DNA of 64,000 bases, taken from assembly GCA_000998275.1 (NCBI GenBank), contig LCDA01000002.1:46708-110707 (forward strand), read 5' to 3'. Of the stretch, positions 19,529 to 47,275 are shown in pieces; position 1 is the stretch's first letter; each line of letters starts with the position of its first letter. A program made the position numbers and the translations under genes. Origin of the DNA: Candidatus Collierbacteria bacterium GW2011_GWA2_42_17 (lineage in GTDB: Bacteria > Patescibacteriota > Microgenomatia > UBA1400 > MFAQ01). The notes below the pieces were generated by a model. It made no database searches. It saw only the letters and a list, made by a program, of their open reading frames with translations, and was not told the origin of the DNA.

Positions 19529-19565
19529 CCCCGCCTAACCACGGCGGGTTTTTATTGGTCAATAC
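19529..19565. terminator. Rho-independent terminator; copy 2 of the 36-nt repeat. Bidirectional, since it overlaps the 3' end of folD.
   Basis: Same hairpin plus T-tract as 18957..18994. On the minus strand the hairpin is followed by a T-rich tract only partly (revcomp of aaccac...). Confidence 0.75.
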
Positions 19566-20352
19566 TCGACAGACTCTCAAAAAGGGACACAATGGTTAGA
19601 GGGCCAACCCCACCCGGAACTGGGGTGATCATCAAAGCCTTTTCAAAAGCGTCGTGAGAAAAATCACCGTTCGTATATCCCAAGTCGATTCCTATAAAAC
19701 CATCATCAACCATTTCTCCTTTTATAAGCCCCGCGACTCCCGTCGCCGCAATCACCACGTCATATTTTTTCAAACTCATCAGGTCATCTCCTTTATCCAA
19801 TCCCGTTACTTGATACCCTAATTTTTGTAATCGGAGTGTCAGTCTTTTTCCCACTTCGCCCATTGCCCCAACAACAACAATTGTCTGTTCCTCATCCACA
19901 TTAAATATTTCCAAAACTCTCTCCACTGCCCCGACAACCGCCGGAATGAACCTAGATTTCGGGTTTAGTCCGTCTATATCCTTTTCCGGATTAATCGTAT
20001 ACAAAATTTGTTCAGTTTCCTCTTTACTAGCCCCTGTTATCGGCAACTGTACCAATATACCGTCTACTGTTTCGTCGGTATTGGCATCCGCCAACATCTC
20101 CCTCAACTCCTCCTTGTTTTTTGCAAATGACACCGTTACCAAAACCCCAAGTCTCTCCCCCATCTCCCGTTTCAGACGTACATAAATACTTTCTTCTGCA
20201 TGTCCGTCACACTGCAAAATCAAAAGGCTCTTTCCTAAAAGCTTTTCCGACTCCTCCAAAAATTTAGCTACTTTTTCCGCTTCTTTCTTTCCGTCTAATA
20301 CTAGTTTGGGCATGGGTATTTTTTGCAAATTACTAATAACGCCGTTTACCAC
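19552..20352 (-). CDS. folD: Bifunctional methylenetetrahydrofolate dehydrogenase/cyclohydrolase
   Basis: Conserved PVPGGVGP motif, a Rossmann-type segment (VVVGAMGEVGKRL), and 266 aa. Confidence 0.88.
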   Translation of the reverse strand: MVNGVISNLQKIPMPKLVLDGKKEAEKVAKFLEESEKLLGKSLLILQCDGHAEESIYVRLKREMGERLGVLVTVSFAKNKEELREMLADANTDETVDGILVQLPITGASKEETEQILYTINPEKDIDGLNPKSRFIPAVVGAVERVLEIFNVDEEQTIVVVGAMGEVGKRLTLRLQKLGYQVTGLDKGDDLMSLKKYDVVIAATGVAGLIKGEMVDDGFIGIDLGYTNGDFSHDAFEKALMITPVPGGVGPLTIVSLFESLSSIDQ

Positions 20353-20378: not shown

Positions 20379-21005
20379 TCAAATCAAACCAAACTCCTTC
20401 AGGGTAACCAGAGAATCATCCAGTACCTTAGGAATACTTTGCGACACATCAATCACTCTCCAAAAATCAGGATACTTTACCGACAACTCCAGATATGCAT
20501 CCCGTACCCGGGAATGAAACGCGAGCTCCTTCATGTCATATCTGTCTTTGTCATCACAGTTCATTTTGCGCACCATCGCCAGTTCCGGCGCCAAATCATA
20601 ATGGAGTACCAGGTCCGGCATTAATCCCTTCGTCGCAATCTTAGAAACCGCAACGATAATCGCCTTATCTACCTTCTCCGAACTTTGATACGCATAGCTA
20701 CTAAACCAGTATCTATCCAGAAGCACTCCCTTACCCTCCCTTAATCCCTCCAAAATCGGAATCACTCTCGTGTTGATGAGATTAGCTCTCGATGCGCTAT
20801 ATGTTAGAAAGGCTGCCATTGGATCAATCTCAATACCGTGAGTTTCCTGAACCGCAGTACGCAGTAACTCACCGTAATCCGTACCTCCTGGTTCTCTAAA
20901 AAATTTCCAATCCTGAAGATACTCTCTGATTCCTTTAATGGCCGTTGTTTTGCCGCTTCCCGATCCTCCCTCAATCACCAGCAAAGGTTTTTTATTCTCG
21001 GTCAT
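20379..21005 (-). CDS. tmk: Thymidylate (dTMP) kinase
   Basis: P-loop LLVIEGGSGSGKTT and the Tmk signature REPGGT. 208 aa. Confidence 0.85.
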   Translation of the reverse strand: MTENKKPLLVIEGGSGSGKTTAIKGIREYLQDWKFFREPGGTDYGELLRTAVQETHGIEIDPMAAFLTYSASRANLINTRVIPILEGLREGKGVLLDRYWFSSYAYQSSEKVDKAIIVAVSKIATKGLMPDLVLHYDLAPELAMVRKMNCDDKDRYDMKELAFHSRVRDAYLELSVKYPDFWRVIDVSQSIPKVLDDSLVTLKEFGLI

Positions 21006-21333
21006 TTTCTGTCCTTTGAATTGCTAAAAATGTCTCTCTTATTTCTTGCGGTAACTCTGCCTTTGTATCTCTCACATATCTACGGTACTCTTCCAGCACT
21101 TCCTCTTCCGTCGTTCTCCTCACCCTTAAACTATCCTTGTCATCCGAAGTCGATATTGTTTTTTCCAGTATCTCACCCTCTCCACCAACATACTTTTTAT
21201 GAAACGCGCTTTCAAATATTCTTTCTGTCATGAAATAACTTAAACCAATTTCTCTCTTTTGTCTACCATCTATACACATATCCATATATACGCACATAGG
21301 CATCTTCTCTTTTTTTCTTTCCACAAAAATCAT
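20992..21333 (-). CDS. Hypothetical protein (113 aa)
   Basis: ORF overlapping the tmk start by 14 nt. No family match. Confidence 0.35.
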   Translation of the reverse strand: MIFVERKKEKMPMCVYMDMCIDGRQKREIGLSYFMTERIFESAFHKKYVGGEGEILEKTISTSDDKDSLRVRRTTEEEVLEEYRRYVRDTKAELPQEIRETFLAIQRTENDRE

Positions 21334-21370: not shown

Positions 21371-22972
21371 ATGGACCGAAAAGAAGCATATCCCTCAGTT
21401 GAGCTGTCCCGATTTAAATCCAGGGTCTCTTTAATTCTTCACTCGACAGCCCCAATTAATACCAGCTCTTTTACTCCGGAACAAATTTCCCTCCTCAACT
21501 CGGCCACCACCATCGTCAGTGCCGCGGCCCGAACTTGTTACTCTTCAGAAATCCAAACTCCTCTTGATTACCTCCAAAAATCAGATAAATATCGTCAGAT
21601 CTCCGATAGTGTCGTCATTAGCACCAAAGAAGCCGGTCACAACACCACACGTCAGCACGCAAGCTACACTTTTGCTCTGGAAAACATCTCTCGATTGGCA
21701 ATAAATTTTCTCCACTCACAACCTTTCTACAACTCCGAAGAAATGTCCCAACGTTACGTCAACATGGCCGACACCAGGTCTCTCACTCCCGACACCGGCA
21801 ACGAAGACCACAACCGCGCCCTCTCTGAAGCAGCCACCTCGCTCAGCACCGCCTACAATCATCTTCAAGAACTCCTCACCCCTACCACCAGGAAATTTAT
21901 TCTTGAACGCTTTCCCGGGCGTGACACCGAGGCTTGGAGAAACAAGATTAACAATGAAGCCGGCAAAAAATCCCAAGAAATTGCCCGCTATCTTCTTCCA
22001 CTTGGTATGCCTACCAATCTTCATTTCACCATCAACGAACTAACTCTCAAACGTCTCTATCATCTCTCGCAAAACCTCCCCATTACCAACGAACTATCCG
22101 CCATTATTCAGGGCATGGTAGACGTAGCCATATCTACCGACCCCTCACTCCAACAGGAGTTAGACAAACCTCTTCCTATTCTGGCTCGTCCAAGATATAA
22201 CCCCAAAAACACTGACCATCACTCTGAAAATATCGCTATTATCGACAACCTATCTCCCATCTCTCCCAACATCACTCGAGCTGTCCGTCACATCCTTGGA
22301 GTCACTTCAGAGGAAATCTCTGATGATGATGCCCTCAAACTTGTTTTCGATCCCAACATTAATCCCTTAATGACCCAAGTTGATGGCGACGGTGTCATTG
22401 ATCATCTTTCCCAAAGTCTTAATCAGGTGAATCTTTCAGTCGAGCTCTCCCTAAGCCATACCGCCAACTACCAACTCCATCGTCATCGCTCTCTTAACCA
22501 CACCACCCCCTTAATCATTCCTCTTCCTCAATCCGAAAGCGACTATGTTATCCCCACCATTCTCGACTCTAATCCTGAAGCTTATGAATTCTTTTTGGAA
22601 ACTCTCGCCCTTCATAGCCAAAAACTCCAAAACCTTTTTGACCAAGGCATTTCCCTCGAACATCTCCAATATCTACTCCCCAACGCCGTTCGTATCCATA
22701 AATCCGTTTCTGGACCTTTTGGAGCCTGGTATCACTTTCTCAAAACCAGAAATTGTTTTAATGCCCAAGAAGAAATCAATGCCATCGCCACCTCAATCAC
22801 CAAACAAATAATCGACATTGACCCGGCTCTCGCTCCCCATCTAGATCATCTCGTCCCTTGCGGTCTTCGCAAAGAATCAAACGTCAAACCATACTGTCCC
22901 GAAGGTGCTCGCTTTTGTGGCGTACGTATCTGGAACCTTTCCGTCAAAGACTATCCCCGGCGTAATATCTAA
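21371..22972 (+). CDS. thyX: Tandem two-domain flavin-dependent thymidylate synthase (ThyX)-like protein
   Basis: Both halves align to the ThyX fold. Half 1: GHNTT..FTF...AI......SQRYV then LPLGMPTNLHFTINELTLKRL. Half 2: LHRHRS.. then LLPNAVRIHKS...FLKTRN...AQEEI. The gene lies next to tmk. 533 aa, against about 220 aa for a single-domain ThyX. Confidence 0.55.
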   Translation: MDRKEAYPSVELSRFKSRVSLILHSTAPINTSSFTPEQISLLNSATTIVSAAARTCYSSEIQTPLDYLQKSDKYRQISDSVVISTKEAGHNTTRQHASYTFALENISRLAINFLHSQPFYNSEEMSQRYVNMADTRSLTPDTGNEDHNRALSEAATSLSTAYNHLQELLTPTTRKFILERFPGRDTEAWRNKINNEAGKKSQEIARYLLPLGMPTNLHFTINELTLKRLYHLSQNLPITNELSAIIQGMVDVAISTDPSLQQELDKPLPILARPRYNPKNTDHHSENIAIIDNLSPISPNITRAVRHILGVTSEEISDDDALKLVFDPNINPLMTQVDGDGVIDHLSQSLNQVNLSVELSLSHTANYQLHRHRSLNHTTPLIIPLPQSESDYVIPTILDSNPEAYEFFLETLALHSQKLQNLFDQGISLEHLQYLLPNAVRIHKSVSGPFGAWYHFLKTRNCFNAQEEINAIATSITKQIIDIDPALAPHLDHLVPCGLRKESNVKPYCPEGARFCGVRIWNLSVKDYPRRNI

Positions 22973-41953: not shown

Positions 41954-44900
41954 TTACAAATTTCCACTTTCACTAGCCGTCTCCGTCGGCGTTATTACTA
42001 CCACTGGCGTTGGCGTAGGCGTCTCTGTTGGACTTGGGGTTGAGCTCAACTCAGTTGTAGGAGTTGGCGTTATGGTAGTTTCCAGTATTGGAGTTGGTTC
42101 AGGTGTTACCGTTTCACTTGGCAGGTCAACAACTCCCCCACTTCCTTCAAACTTGCCTGTTTCATTTACTGCTAGAGCAACCCAGGCAAATCGTAAATCC
42201 ATGCCGACTCCTCTACTCAAACGAATCTTAAAGCCTCTGGTATTTACATCGGCAATAGCATAACCGGGAATGTCGGCAACCGAAGCACCTCCTACAATTT
42301 GCACCGTGGCAGTTACCACTGGTTCGTCTTTATATTCTCTCTCAAACAAAATCTCCACTTGGCTGCCTCCAGTTTTAATCGTGGCAAAACCTGCTGTGTC
42401 TTTATTAAACGTTGGCCTTCCGACAAAGTTTACCTCTCCTCTAAAGATCACTTTGCCCAAAAACTCTACTGTGTTCCTAAACACCTCAGCTATTTTCTTG
42501 GAAATTAGGTCTAATATATCAATCTCACTCGAAGTATCACTTTGTATTTCACCGGCAGCCGTGGCCACTCCTGCTACCCGATCACTCAACAGACTCAGTT
42601 TCCTGGTCAAGATATCCACTCCTTCGATCCTCCCGGCCTTTATCGTATCTGCGTAAAGTATTCCTGAAAAAGTGGCGTCACCCGACACTAGTAGGTCCTG
42701 TGTCACCACTTTTGGAGTTATTATTTCCAGTCCGGCAACCACTCTGTCAGCTATTATGTCGGACATGTTTGCCGAGTCAGTCGCAACTTGATTTTTTTCC
42801 ATAATCAGATTAGTCAGCACCTCATAACCATTAGCTACATCAATTCCCTTCATCACTTCAGTAAGATTACTTCCGGTACTGTTACCATTCTTCACAAAAA
42901 CAATTACGACTCCAACTCCTTCTCCGTCATATCCGGTCATCGCCGTCCCAATTATTGCTCCGGCCTTTGTTGCTCTCATCGCCACCCCAGGAATGGATGA
43001 AGAAGTCAGATAATCTCCGGCCTTGATTTCCCCATTTTCCGCCGACACTTTTACTGGCACCCTTCCCGAAAGAGCTACCAGTACCGGAGTTCCCGATACA
43101 TTTCCGTCACCAAGCACCATTCCCGGTTTTGTCGATACTATTCCCAGTACTGTGGAATCATAAGTCTTTCTGGATTTCTGGACGCCATTCTGAATTGAAC
43201 TGTCAACAGAAACGACGTCTCCTTCAGCTATTGAGCCATCATTCGATGAATACACTTCCGCCAAATCAGCCCCGCCGACCTTGAAAGCTTCCAAGAAGCT
43301 ACCTGCTTTAACCGTCACGTTCGTTCCCACCCCTGCCGTATTTTCGGCAAACTGAAAATTGAAGGTCCCTGCCGTTGCTCCGGTAGTGATAATTCCCTGA
43401 ATCCAGACATCAAAACCTTGACCTGCATCTGAAGCAATATTGTTATTAACCATCTCGGCTGGGGTTGTACAGTCTGTAGTTAATGCTTGTAGAAATACAG
43501 CTCCTACTGACTCAGATCCCGACTGCTGAACACTACAAGTGGTAGCTGCAGGACCAAGAATCGCTGCTTTCCAATCCGGCCCGTTACTGCTTCCGTTAGT
43601 TACAATCAGATGCAGTCTGAACACCCAAGATTCACTGGCCGCCATTGAAAACTGTAAAGCTGTATCATTGGTCAGGGTGGTACTATTGGTCACCGCCTGG
43701 TCAGTAGATTTAGTAATAAACAACTTATCTCCCCCAATACAGTTTGTCCAAGCACCGTTTTGGTAACATCTGAATTTATTAGTACTAGTGTTGTAATAGG
43801 TAGCCCCGTTTGTTCCGATTGGATCGGCCGTTCCGTTATCCAGCACCAACAAATCTGGTGTCGCCGTGGCGCTGTTTCCGATTACTACCCTTCCTGTCGA
43901 CGATGTTGGACCAACCATAAAGTTCACATTTCCAGTTCCGGAATATAAGTTTAAAGCCGTTGCACCAGTTGTATTACCCATCGTTATCGTCTTTGCATTG
44001 GCATTGGTACCAATATTAATTGCTCCGGTTGTTCCCGAGTCGAGTGTCACTGTTCCTGTTGTTCCGGTTGTAAAGGACAGATTTCCGGAAGTACCGGTTA
44101 GTAAAGTAATTCCTCCCGTACCGGAGTTGATGTTGACCGAAGTAGACGTATTAGTATTTCCTAAGGTAATCGCTTTTGCCGAAGCTCCGGTTCCAATATT
44201 TAGAGACATCGCCCCGGTCCCTGTAAATAAATTTGCCGTCCCCGTTTGGGCAGTTCCTCCCATCGTAAAGGTTCCATTCGTCGTCGAAGTTCCGAAAGAA
44301 TACGTTGTTGCCCCTGCTCCATCCAAAATAAAGTTCCCCGTACCCGCATACATATTTAGGGCACCCGTTCCCGTCGCACTACCAATCGTAATTGTTTTTC
44401 CGGTCGCGCTATTACCGATGTTTATCGCCCCGACACCGGAATCGATATTAATCGCCTGAGCCAGTGTCGCGTTTCCAATAGTCACTCCACCAGCCGCCGT
44501 TGTATCAATTATCGGAAATGACCTGGCAAAAATACCCAAAGGTGCCGCCGTCGATGACGGTAATGTCCGAGCATTCAAAATATACTGTGATCCCGCACCA
44601 TTTATTGCCGCCGTCGTCTCCCCAAAAGTAAACGCTGTTTTTACGGCTGTTGTCAAAGCAAAGTTCCAAGCCTGTGCATTGTCGCCATTAGCAATGGTAC
44701 TTCCACCTAAAGCAGCCGAAATTGAATCGAGACTGGTACCACTTGCACTACAAGCCCACGCCGTCCCACTATATTTAAGAATCTCTCCCGATGAACAAGT
44801 TCGAAGTAATGACAAACCGGTACTATTTACTAACCCACCGCCGGTACTTAGTTGAACTGCCGAACCCGATACTTTATTTGCCGTTGTGATTGTTGATAGG

Positions 44901-47275
44901 CTAGTATCAGCAATATTGGAAAGTGTATTCAAACTGGCATCTATTGTTTTATTTGTCAAAGCTATCGCAGTGTCCGTCAAAACGACTTTTGTTCCGGTTC
45001 TGATTCTTGCCACACCACCAGTTTGATCAGTAATCACAAACTCTTCGGACGAAGTTGTCGCCGGTCCGAACTGAAGCGTCGTTACTGCTCCAACCGATGG
45101 AGAACCGTCTGATTCTGCCACGGTCACGGATCCTCCGCCTGTTGAATCCGCACTACATGTCCAACCGGTAGCCGCCGTCCATTTTAGAATTTGATTATCA
45201 CTACAAGTCCTAAGTAGCGACAAACCGGAATCATTCACCAAACCACCATTGGCATTTAATGTCGGTGACCCCGATGTACTATCCGTATTACACACCCAAG
45301 ACGTTCCATTGTATTTAAGGATCTCTCCTGATGCGCAGGTTCTGAGCAAAGACAAGCCAGTACTATCTACTAACCCACCGCCGGTACTTAGTTGAACTGC
45401 TGAACCCGATACTTTATTTGCCGTTGTGATTGTTGCCAAATTGGCATCGGTTATTCCCGCAGTCCCGGATAAATTTGAGTTCGTAAGTCCGGAAATAGTA
45501 TTGGCTCCGGCGGCAATCGTTTTATTTGTTAACGTCCCTGACTCATTCAGAAATACAAAGGTGTCATTCCCCGACAAAGCCGGAATCGTCGCTGTTCTAC
45601 TGGCACTTGGTGCTGTAGAGGAAATCGTTGTCGTATTGGTTGTTCCCAATACCAGCTGATTATTTACCTTGGTCAGTGTAAGTGAATTAAACGTTGGTGT
45701 CGCTGTTGAATCGATATTTTGGATCGTATTCACCGACCCACTAACTACACTAAAGTTTGTTGAGTTATAGTTTGCTACTCCTTTTAATGTTGTTGAGGCG
45801 TCCACTCCGGCAATTGTTACTGTTCCTCCAAGAGATACCGGTGAACCGCTCACCGAAATTCCACTCCCCGGAGAGACAAAGATACTACTGTTGGATAGCT
45901 GGCCATTGGTAATACCCGCAGAGGCCGCTAGATTAGCCGAGGTTAATCCTGAAATAGCTGTGTTCGTTACTCCACTCACTCTCCCGTTTGCGTCGGTCGT
46001 CAACACCGGAATGTCTGTCGCTGTGCCGTAGGTTCCGGCTGTTCCCACGCTGGGTAACACTCCCGCAATATTTATCGTTGTCCCGGACGCAGTTACCGTA
46101 TTTAATCCGCTGCCGGTAATCGTAAGACCCCCGGTTAAACTATTTATACTTGATACTCCCGTCCCCACCCCACTTACCGACTGACACTCCCATGAATCTC
46201 CATCCCAACTCAACACCTGGTCTATCGAACAGCCCGTCAAAAGACTCAAACCCGAGTCATTTGTTAACCCCCCTCCGCCTCTCAACGATACTGCGGCTCC
46301 GGATACTTTATTTGCCTCGGTAATTTGAGCCAGTTTTGCATTAGTTATCTCTCCATCACCAATTTTTCCCGACGTAATTGTCCCATCTGTTATTTTGGCT
46401 CCAGTCACAGCGGAATCAGCCAGTTTGATGGTCGTCACCGCCCCGTCAGCCAACTTCAGAGTTGTTATCGAACCATTTACAATCTGGGCATCACCAACCA
46501 CCCCACTATTGATTATGGCCAATCCGGTCACTGGATCTATCGTAATGGCTCCGGAAACTACCGATGGTGTAGGGGATATTTCTGCCCCTGGAAGAATCAC
46601 CGTCACGGTTTCTTGAGCTTGATCTAACCATTTAAAAACCTCTTTTCCAACAGCTGCAGTAGCTATATCCACCTCCTGCAAAGACGGTGTAATGCTTATA
46701 TTTTCAAAATTACCTCGAGTATCTATCGTACCCAAAATTTGGGAATTATCTTTTAGACTTCGCAGATCCACGTCCCCAACCATCTTACCGCCGTTTATTC
46801 TGCCGTTAATTATTTTTACGGGGAGCGTTGTTCCGTCGGTCAGTGTTATACCAACCACTCCGTGTAACACAATCATGGCGTTCTCTATTACTCGATTATC
46901 GTCATCATAGATATTTACCGTCCCCTTTATTTCCTGGGTCAGTTTTGCCTCACCATTTTGATAAACAAGTTCTGTAAGATCAACGTATTTTTCATTTTGA
47001 ATCTGTGCGTTTTGAACTTTTACAAATGCGTACTCTCCGTTGGTTCGTGCTATTACCAAATATGGCTGATTGCCCAAATTGCTCTCTGACAATACCTCCG
47101 GAGTTACTTCCGAAACAGCCTGAATTGTCACTTGTTTTTCAACAACAGCAGGCTTGATCTTGCCGCCACTAATTGCAAAAACAACCCCTCCCCCAGTAAT
47201 CACAAAAAACAGAATCAAGATAAAACGCACTACCTGATCATATTTATTTCCAGTAATTAGCTGAGAACCTTCCAT
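41954..47275 (-). CDS. Giant (1773 aa) N-terminally anchored repetitive surface protein, tail-fibre/adhesin-like
   Basis: N-terminal TM. Short (I/L)TxxKLADGAVT-type repeats. Four copies of a module ANKVSGSAVQL.TGGGLVxSTGLSLLRTC...ILK(Y/W)...W.C with a conserved Cys pair. Long G/T/S/N-rich beta-like tracts. A C-terminal PT-rich linker. The start codon abuts the stop of the upstream gene. Confidence 0.8.
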   Translation of the reverse strand: MEGSQLITGNKYDQVVRFILILFFVITGGGVVFAISGGKIKPAVVEKQVTIQAVSEVTPEVLSESNLGNQPYLVIARTNGEYAFVKVQNAQIQNEKYVDLTELVYQNGEAKLTQEIKGTVNIYDDDNRVIENAMIVLHGVVGITLTDGTTLPVKIINGRINGGKMVGDVDLRSLKDNSQILGTIDTRGNFENISITPSLQEVDIATAAVGKEVFKWLDQAQETVTVILPGAEISPTPSVVSGAITIDPVTGLAIINSGVVGDAQIVNGSITTLKLADGAVTTIKLADSAVTGAKITDGTITSGKIGDGEITNAKLAQITEANKVSGAAVSLRGGGGLTNDSGLSLLTGCSIDQVLSWDGDSWECQSVSGVGTGVSSINSLTGGLTITGSGLNTVTASGTTINIAGVLPSVGTAGTYGTATDIPVLTTDANGRVSGVTNTAISGLTSANLAASAGITNGQLSNSSIFVSPGSGISVSGSPVSLGGTVTIAGVDASTTLKGVANYNSTNFSVVSGSVNTIQNIDSTATPTFNSLTLTKVNNQLVLGTTNTTTISSTAPSASRTATIPALSGNDTFVFLNESGTLTNKTIAAGANTISGLTNSNLSGTAGITDANLATITTANKVSGSAVQLSTGGGLVDSTGLSLLRTCASGEILKYNGTSWVCNTDSTSGSPTLNANGGLVNDSGLSLLRTCSDNQILKWTAATGWTCSADSTGGGSVTVAESDGSPSVGAVTTLQFGPATTSSEEFVITDQTGGVARIRTGTKVVLTDTAIALTNKTIDASLNTLSNIADTSLSTITTANKVSGSAVQLSTGGGLVNSTGLSLLRTCSSGEILKYSGTAWACSASGTSLDSISAALGGSTIANGDNAQAWNFALTTAVKTAFTFGETTAAINGAGSQYILNARTLPSSTAAPLGIFARSFPIIDTTAAGGVTIGNATLAQAINIDSGVGAINIGNSATGKTITIGSATGTGALNMYAGTGNFILDGAGATTYSFGTSTTNGTFTMGGTAQTGTANLFTGTGAMSLNIGTGASAKAITLGNTNTSTSVNINSGTGGITLLTGTSGNLSFTTGTTGTVTLDSGTTGAINIGTNANAKTITMGNTTGATALNLYSGTGNVNFMVGPTSSTGRVVIGNSATATPDLLVLDNGTADPIGTNGATYYNTSTNKFRCYQNGAWTNCIGGDKLFITKSTDQAVTNSTTLTNDTALQFSMAASESWVFRLHLIVTNGSSNGPDWKAAILGPAATTCSVQQSGSESVGAVFLQALTTDCTTPAEMVNNNIASDAGQGFDVWIQGIITTGATAGTFNFQFAENTAGVGTNVTVKAGSFLEAFKVGGADLAEVYSSNDGSIAEGDVVSVDSSIQNGVQKSRKTYDSTVLGIVSTKPGMVLGDGNVSGTPVLVALSGRVPVKVSAENGEIKAGDYLTSSSIPGVAMRATKAGAIIGTAMTGYDGEGVGVVIVFVKNGNSTGSNLTEVMKGIDVANGYEVLTNLIMEKNQVATDSANMSDIIADRVVAGLEIITPKVVTQDLLVSGDATFSGILYADTIKAGRIEGVDILTRKLSLLSDRVAGVATAAGEIQSDTSSEIDILDLISKKIAEVFRNTVEFLGKVIFRGEVNFVGRPTFNKDTAGFATIKTGGSQVEILFEREYKDEPVVTATVQIVGGASVADIPGYAIADVNTRGFKIRLSRGVGMDLRFAWVALAVNETGKFEGSGGVVDLPSETVTPEPTPILETTITPTPTTELSSTPSPTETPTPTPVVVITPTETASESGNL
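44767..45436. repeat. Two near-identical (2-3 mismatches) intragenic direct repeats of about 130 bp, 540 bp apart, inside the giant gene
   Basis: 44767..44896 against 45307..45436, compared by eye. They correspond to module copies 2 and 4. More diverged copies lie at about 45180-45260 and 46180-46330. Confidence 0.85.

Follow-up and report, generated by a model that had tools for sequence, protein, structure and literature searches.

A tandem ThyX protein with catalytic residues divided between two Thy1 domains, which probably form one composite active site per chain

Can a flavin-dependent thymidylate synthase still work when it consists of two fused ThyX domains and neither of them keeps a complete catalytic motif? 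This question is raised by a gene in the 64-kb stretch of DNA analysed here (hereafter the window). ThyX is essential and a target for drugs; because identical subunits share its active sites, it is difficult to study what each of them contributes. The initial annotation of the locus, made from the letters of the sequence, had proposed that the two halves of the protein are complementary: the first keeps the S.RY part of the motif and has lost RHR, the second keeps RHR and has lost S.RY, and a fused pseudo-dimer could rebuild one complete site. A non-catalytic paralogue was named as the alternative.

The open reading frame lies exactly where it had been placed, and it is divided as follows.

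21371..22972, + strand: tandem thyX ORF, 533 aa plus stop codon, ATG start (ORF list; Thy1 and TIGR02170 matches)
21500..22135, + strand: Thy1 domain of half 1, aa 44-255, carrying the 'S88-side' residues (Thy1 profile positions 8-187 of 191; hhalign and HMMER to TM0449)
22160..22261, + strand: inter-domain linker, aa 264-297 (lowest pLDDT, about 75; highest column entropy, 2.52 bits; no invariant residue)
22415..22825, + strand: Thy1 core of half 2, aa 349-485, carrying the 'RHR-side' residues (Thy1 profile positions 53-190 of 191 only; hhalign and HMMER)

In a profile scan the whole protein matches Pfam Thy1 (PF02511) in two stretches with E=4.9e-42. It also passes the thyX equivalog cutoff of TIGR02170 (94.9 bits vs 87.9), the score being the sum over two stretches and the cutoff being reached only thanks to the two domains. 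Scanned separately against Thy1, residues 1-270 obtain 83.5 bits and residues 271-533 obtain 64.4 bits. Both halves are true Thy1 domains, as had been supposed, because each alone exceeds the gathering score of 24.8 bits. The protein as a whole has the three-dimensional fold of ThyX. The N-terminal part of half 2 (aa 298-348) has diverged and is no longer recognised by the profile. A direct BLASTP comparison of the two halves gives marginal similarity (E=0.019 over 29 residues), whereas profile-profile comparison with hhalign gives a probability of 95%; the duplication is detectable only by profiles and not by direct BLASTP.

A family profile of each half was then aligned to TM0449, the ThyX of T. 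maritima, the TM0449 sequence used being identical to that of PDB 1KQ4/1O26, and hhalign and HMMER produced identical residue maps. The motif block of half 1 is residues 115-130, HSQPFYNSEEMSQRYV, and that of half 2 is residues 369-380, LHRHRSLNHTTP. The positions compared, in TM0449 numbering, are these.

H53: H90 in half 1, kept; no aligned equivalent in half 2
R74: R108 in half 1, kept; Y367 in half 2, lost
Q75: L109 in half 1, lost; Q368 in half 2, kept
R78: L114 in half 1, lost; R371 in half 2, kept
H79: H115 in half 1, kept; H372 in half 2, kept
R80: S116 in half 1, lost; R373 in half 2, kept
S88: S126 in half 1, kept; I383 in half 2, lost
G89: Q127 in half 1; P384 in half 2
R90: R128 in half 1, kept; L385 in half 2, lost
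Y91: Y129 in half 1, kept; P386 in half 2, lost
R147: R206 in half 1, kept; Q433 in half 2, lost
R174: S233 in half 1, lost; R460 in half 2, kept
H178: P237 in half 1, lost; N464 in half 2, lost

The elements concerned are located on the DNA as follows.

21638..21640, + strand: H90, equivalent to H53 of folate/flavin stacking (alignment; 194/194)
21710..21718, + strand: degenerate RHR of half 1, L114-H115-S116 (alignments)
21746..21757, + strand: intact S-x-R-Y block, S126-Q127-R128-Y129, equivalent to S88, R90 and Y91 (S, Q and R 194/194, Y 192/194)
21986..21988, + strand: R206, equivalent to R147 of dUMP phosphate binding, in half 1 only (EIARYLLP aligned with EVARIVLP; 194/194)
22472..22489, + strand: intact Q75 and RHR, Q368-L-H-R371-H372-R373 (Q, R, H and R each 194/194)
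22517..22528, + strand: degenerate S-x-R-Y of half 2, I383-P-L-P386 (variable columns, entropy 2.3-3.6 bits)
22748..22750, + strand: R460, equivalent to R174 of dUMP N3 activation, in half 2 only (RNCFNAQEE aligned with RADSHAQWE; 194/194)

A contiguous RHR...S-x-R-Y motif is present in neither domain, half 1 reading LHS...SQRY and half 2 reading RHR...IPLP. The division first described for the two halves is confirmed by this map: S126-Q-R-Y129 falls on S88-G-R-Y91 in a half with no arginine at the R78 and R80 positions, and R371-H-R373 falls on R78-H-R80 in a half with no serine or arginine at the S88 and R90 positions. The catalytic set H53, Q75, R78, S88, R90, Y91, R147 and R174 is complete once per polypeptide and in neither domain alone, and the alignments indicate that complementarity spans this whole set, beyond the two motif fragments first reported. 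At the FAD-contact positions N163, R165 and H178 of T. maritima ThyX, residue identity is unconserved in either half.

Conservation was judged on 194 distinct sequences, namely the best 120 of 2317 matches together with proteins translated from 80 genome loci, among which pairwise identity goes down to 29%. H90, S126, Q127, R128, R206, Q368, R371, H372, R373 and R460 occur in all 194 and Y129 in 192, and the column entropy at these eleven 'intact-site' positions is 0-0.08 bits. Few columns of the protein vary as much as positions 383-386 and 433 of half 2, with 2.3-3.6 bits vs a protein-wide mean of 1.75 bits; position 433, the R147 equivalent and Q433 here, is one of them. On the side of half 1, position 233 (R174 equivalent) is variable and holds Cys, Ser, Ala or Thr, position 114 (R78 equivalent) is Leu in 187/194, position 116 (R80 equivalent) is Ser or Ala across the 194 homologues, and position 115 (H79 equivalent) is kept in 194/194. 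The split pattern is not due to chance, because it is invariant in 194 homologues with identity as low as 29%, and the columns indicate one site held by selection with the other released.

These data bear on the alternative that the protein is a non-catalytic paralogue, that is, a degenerate double ThyX fold with a structural or regulatory role in a cell that gets its thymidylate from another enzyme or by salvage. A complete ThyX motif in neither half is what such a protein could show, yet every catalytic residue is still present in one of the halves and only one, with no variation among 194 sequences from different phyla, and a pseudoenzyme would not retain S-Q-R-Y, Q..RHR, R147 and R174 under such constraint. 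The combination of invariant kept positions and variable lost positions argues strongly against a pseudoenzyme; zero entropy at the kept residues against 2.3-3.6 bits at the lost positions of half 2 disfavours this part of the initial annotation, and the passing of the TIGR02170 cutoff points the same way.

It is also conceivable that both sites of each chain are active, giving four per pseudo-tetramer, with R108 and R228 as substitutes in half 1 and S378-R379 in half 2. In half 1, R108, H115 and R228 never vary, and R379 is found in 165/194 sequences and S378 in 143/194. The protein of the window, however, has T378-T379, so the S378-R379 pair is dispensable; the S88, R90, Y91 and R147 equivalents of half 2 and the R174 equivalent of half 1 belong to the columns with the greatest variability, and no arginine replaces R78 and R80 in half 1. 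We regard two active sites per chain as quite unlikely.

As a separate observation, R108, H115 and R228 of half 1 lie around its 'dead' motif. Given their invariance, the second site of the tandem protein may not be entirely functionless.

Some features of individual homologues were noted in the same comparison. Two of them (P0181 and P0200) contain inteins between the equivalents of N121 and S122, four residues before SQRY; both inserts match Intein_splicing and that of P0200 also matches HNH. Inteins are typically located in functionally critical sites, and an intein next to SQRY is consistent with a catalytic role for the half 1 motif. A gene-fusion or assembly artefact was considered and rejected, the architecture being common to 194 distinct full-length sequences. 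Split-gene forms were also considered as ancestors with separate subunits and were rejected: all the short 'half-2-only' representatives begin at the conserved Met249 helix that closes half 1, or immediately behind it, and truncation in gene calling is their most likely origin.

An AlphaFold2 model of the tandem protein, built with a 92-sequence alignment, has a pLDDT of 93.6 and a pTM of 0.92, with confidence falling off only in the linker, around residues 271-290. Because the pTM is high, the two domains are predicted with confidence to be placed relative to each other in one compact body. In canonical ThyX, residues of two chains meet at one site: the crystal structure of the PBCV-1 enzyme shows a ligand in the uracil pocket that is bound by Gln75 and Arg182 of one subunit, monomer A, together with Ser88/Gln89 of monomer B (PMC3498832). 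Arg182 of PBCV-1 ThyX is the R174 equivalent, and its S-Q-R is the same as in half 1. Half 2 can be read as 'monomer A' and half 1 as 'monomer B', since the residue partition matches that of PBCV-1 ThyX. We take R147 to lie on the same chain as S88-R90, presumably as in the UniProt/HAMAP annotation, which fits its grouping in half 1. Regarding individual roles, H53 stacks on folate and flavin and R78 faces flavin N1/O2 (both PMC11940539), S88, R90 and Y91 assist methylene transfer (PMC8316439, PMC11940539), and R174 activates dUMP N3 (PMC8316439).

The reading that we consider probable is a functional tandem FDTS in which each chain has a single complete dUMP/FAD/folate site, the other site being vestigial. 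An ancestral thyX would have been duplicated and then fused; as the canonical site is built from different subunits, each copy would have been free to lose residues that the other supplied. Half 2 would provide the 'RHR side' (Q368, R371-H372-R373, R460) for binding and activation of the dUMP base and for flavin contact, and half 1 the 'S-x-R-Y side' (S126, Q127, R128, Y129, R206, H90) for methylene transfer, phosphate binding and folate stacking. A symmetric canonical pair forms two reciprocal sites, whereas in the tandem protein only the combination of half 2 (A) and half 1 (B) would be complete, and a pair of chains would make up a pseudo-tetramer whose active sites number two and not four. 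The fused pseudo-dimer with one composite site, as initially proposed, is supported in that Q75 and R174 on one side and H53 and R147 on the other are also partitioned, the PBCV-1 partition is identical, and the kept residues have zero entropy.

Beyond the Thy1 core, the protein carries a further set of conserved cysteines.

22754..22756, + strand: C462, tandem-specific and invariant (194/194), separated from R460 by one residue; TM0449 has Asp in this column
22841..22969, + strand: C-terminal extension, aa 491-533 (8 of 43 residues invariant; mean entropy 1.52 bits, the lowest of any segment)
22859-22861, 22895-22897 and 22916-22918, + strand: C497, C509 and C516, like C462 tandem-specific and invariant (194/194)

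The extension has no sequence match in Pfam or PDB. C462, C497, C509 and C516 may form a candidate four-cysteine metal site, and the metal would pin the extension beside the helix of the catalytic arginine. For the metal, the cautious assumption is structural zinc, with an Fe-S cluster as the alternative. A more far-reaching proposal is that an Fe-S cluster lies by the sole flavin site, with ferredoxin or another non-pyridine electron donor, and that the abandoned site was remodelled to hold the extension; we think this unlikely, and if true, tandem ThyX would be set apart from other thymidylate synthases by its mechanism, as a class of its own. A fifth invariant cysteine, C56, stands in an R-x-C-Y context that is shared with the single-domain ThyX of C. 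glutamicum.

The neighbourhood of the gene includes two enzymes of the same pathway.

20379..21005, - strand: tmk, thymidylate kinase, divergent neighbour that uses the dTMP product (Pfam Thymidylate_kin, E=5.8e-30)
19552..20352, - strand: folD, methylene-THF dehydrogenase/cyclohydrolase, which supplies CH2-THF (Pfam THF_DHG_CYH and THF_DHG_CYH_C)

The tmk neighbour had been recognised at the outset; it is divergent from thyX with one 113-aa ORF between them, and folD comes after tmk. The wider surroundings are of housekeeping type, with rpsB, tsf, frr, an M50 protease, folD, tmk, topA, a PBP, mreC and mreB. In the favoured reading, the enzyme would make dTMP for the neighbouring Tmk with CH2-THF from FolD. 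The initial annotation had suggested looking for thyA or a second thyX elsewhere; tblastn with E. coli ThyA, FolA and Dut and T. maritima ThyX as queries found no thyA, second thyX or folA in the window. To the credit of the non-catalytic alternative, this search for another synthase covered 64 kb of the genome, and CPR bacteria often depend on salvage. Since tmk and folD adjoin the gene, and in view of the constraint on the catalytic residues, we hold a non-catalytic role to be extremely improbable.

Among the genome matches listed, the nearest, with 89% identity, comes from a 704-kb contig (JBAQNH010000002.1) of a Microgenomates (CPR) MAG, where tmk, folD and topA have the same order as in the window. 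Adjacency to tmk occurs in 3/80 loci and to folD in 2/80, limited to close relatives, and a family-wide tmk-folD-thyX operon was rejected on these counts.

The gene itself is typical of a large family that has been annotated automatically, and this genome is not exceptional in having it. The protein search returned 2317 matches, of which the best 120 are all 499-563 aa long with 89-100% query coverage and 32-99% identity, and at least 582 species-representative genomes encode a relative. Bacterial hosts include Myxococcota, Acidobacteriota, Elusimicrobiota, Planctomycetota, Bdellovibrionota, Chloroflexota, Sericytochromatia and CPR; archaeal hosts are MAGs of Nitrososphaerota, Nanoarchaeota, Aenigmarchaeota and Thermoplasmatota. 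The family comprises 156 clusters (50% identity, E<=1e-30), and its members, about 500-560 aa long, are called 'FAD-dependent thymidylate synthase' by automatic annotation where they are named in the sources. The protein of the window is homologous to them over both halves and has all the split-site residues as well as C462, C497, C509 and C516. What had been called an unusual evolutionary solution is thus real as a split design, but it is widespread and not special to this genome.

In the open-access literature searched, we found no paper on tandem ThyX or on a complementary split site, and tandem forms are unmentioned in the Asgard ThyX paper, the methyltransferase review PMC5954106, the Dictyostelium paper and Stern 2010. 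No structure of a tandem ThyX is present in the PDB copy searched.

The tandem protein would be useful in several respects. A natural covalent heterodimer allows the 'RHR side' and the 'S-x-R-Y side' to be mutated separately and asymmetrically, and the predicted cofactor stoichiometry differs, with one FAD per 533 aa. Tandem ThyX also illustrates cleanly how two copies can degenerate in complementary fashion after duplication and fusion. For annotation, a rule that demands an intact ThyX motif per domain would wrongly call the tandem proteins inactive, and in many CPR, myxobacterial, acidobacterial and planctomycete genomes and in some archaeal ones there is probably no thymidylate synthase besides tandem ThyX.

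Compared with canonical ThyX/FDTS (T. maritima TM0449, M. tuberculosis, PBCV-1; EC 2.1.1.148), which is a single-domain homotetramer with four active sites at the subunit interfaces, the protein described here has two domains fused in one chain and is predicted to have two sites per pseudo-tetramer, a dimer of chains. Its half 2 has no profile-matching N-terminal part, the part that carries the H53 loop in the canonical enzyme, and its C-terminal extension with invariant cysteines is absent from TM0449. A more distant match than the true ThyX enzymes is PolB of Streptomyces cacaoi (PDB 4P5A/4P5B), a UMP/dUMP methylase of a nucleoside-antibiotic pathway, with a single domain and a complete motif. 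As a ThyX homologue PolB is a precedent for the idea that the tandem protein is an active flavin/folate methylase that acts not on dUMP but on, for example, UMP or a cytosine nucleotide, an idea to which we give very little weight.

As regards activity, Chlamydia trachomatis ThyX (CT632) is reported to be an active dTMP synthase that depends on NADPH and CH2-THF and yields THF, the characterisation being credited to Griffin et al. (2005 J Biol Chem 280:5456), and this ThyX was also assayed in PMC3498832. Among the 20 family representatives examined there is no chlamydial member, the named ones being Patescibacteria and archaeal MAGs. CT632 is, we assume, about 529 aa long, double the usual ThyX length, and may be of the same tandem type; if it belongs to the family, enzymatic activity of the tandem type would have been known since 2005.

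Complementation between ThyX subunits has a parallel in H. pylori, where inactive mutants reportedly form heterotetramers in which subunits with different defects jointly make up working sites. Those mixed heterotetramers are a laboratory construct of separate chains, whereas complementation in tandem ThyX would be natural, covalent and evolutionarily fixed. The monomeric dUTPase of herpesviruses, likewise an enzyme of nucleotide metabolism, provides an analogy from outside the family: a subunit was duplicated and fused there, and the motifs of the single composite site that resulted are distributed over the two copies. Its fold and chemistry are unrelated to those of tandem ThyX, and the likeness is one of analogy only.

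Besides its catalytic residues, the tandem flavin-dependent thymidylate synthase (ThyX) family carries four cysteines that are specific to it, one of them placed two residues past the catalytic arginine (R460) of half 2 and the other three in a highly conserved C-terminal extension. Their codons in the window gene are as follows.

22754-22756 (+), codon of C462, invariant in 194/194 homologues
22859-22861 (+), codon of C497, invariant in 194/194 homologues
22895-22897 (+), codon of C509, invariant in 194/194 homologues
22916-22918 (+), codon of C516, invariant in 194/194 homologues

The extension itself has no sequence match in Pfam or PDB, and the four invariant cysteines may form a Zn or Fe-S site.

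Two homologues, P0181 (840 aa) and P0200 (821 aa), have half 1 split by an intein, both of them matching Pfam Intein_splicing and P0200 additionally matching HNH. The insertion point precedes the S-Q-R-Y catalytic block by four residues.

21734 (+), position equivalent to the intein insertion point of P0181 and P0200, between N121 and S122

Some family representatives appear to comprise half 2 only. P0249, P0253, P0255 and P0256 appear as stand-alone "half 2" proteins, all of whose starts are located at or just past the half 1 helix bearing the conserved Met249, and they probably reflect truncation of the gene calls, not splitting of the genes. In another representative, P0247 (347 aa), a short-chain dehydrogenase N-terminus is followed by a ThyX domain of the half 2 type alone, complete with the cysteine-rich tail; this may be a chimeric assembly or else a genuine fusion with what might be a reductase.

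Regarding the genomic surroundings of thyX, a short ORF is found between it and the thymidylate kinase gene tmk.

20992-21333 (-), 113-aa ORF between tmk and thyX

This ORF overlaps the start of tmk by 14 nt and is separated from the divergent thyX start by only 37 bp; no Pfam family matches it significantly, and its conservation in the Microgenomates relative L001 is 78%. The largest ORF of the window is located at 41954-47275 (-) and encodes 1773 aa.

Throughout the window (1-64000) the + strand is very strongly and uniformly richer in C than in G, with a GC skew of -0.275 overall and negative values, from -0.11 to -0.37, in all 2-kb bins. At third codon positions the skew reaches -0.70 in thyX, and the values for the other + strand genes examined lie between -0.52 and -0.68. 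Since the + strand skew stays negative through the - strand genes too, the asymmetry is strand-wide rather than linked to the coding strand.

As to its distribution, the tandem ThyX family is also present in archaeal MAGs, namely those of Nitrososphaerota, Nanoarchaeota, Aenigmarchaeota and Thermoplasmatota (representatives P0217, P0193, P0243 and P0209), which suggests lateral transfer between the domains of life.
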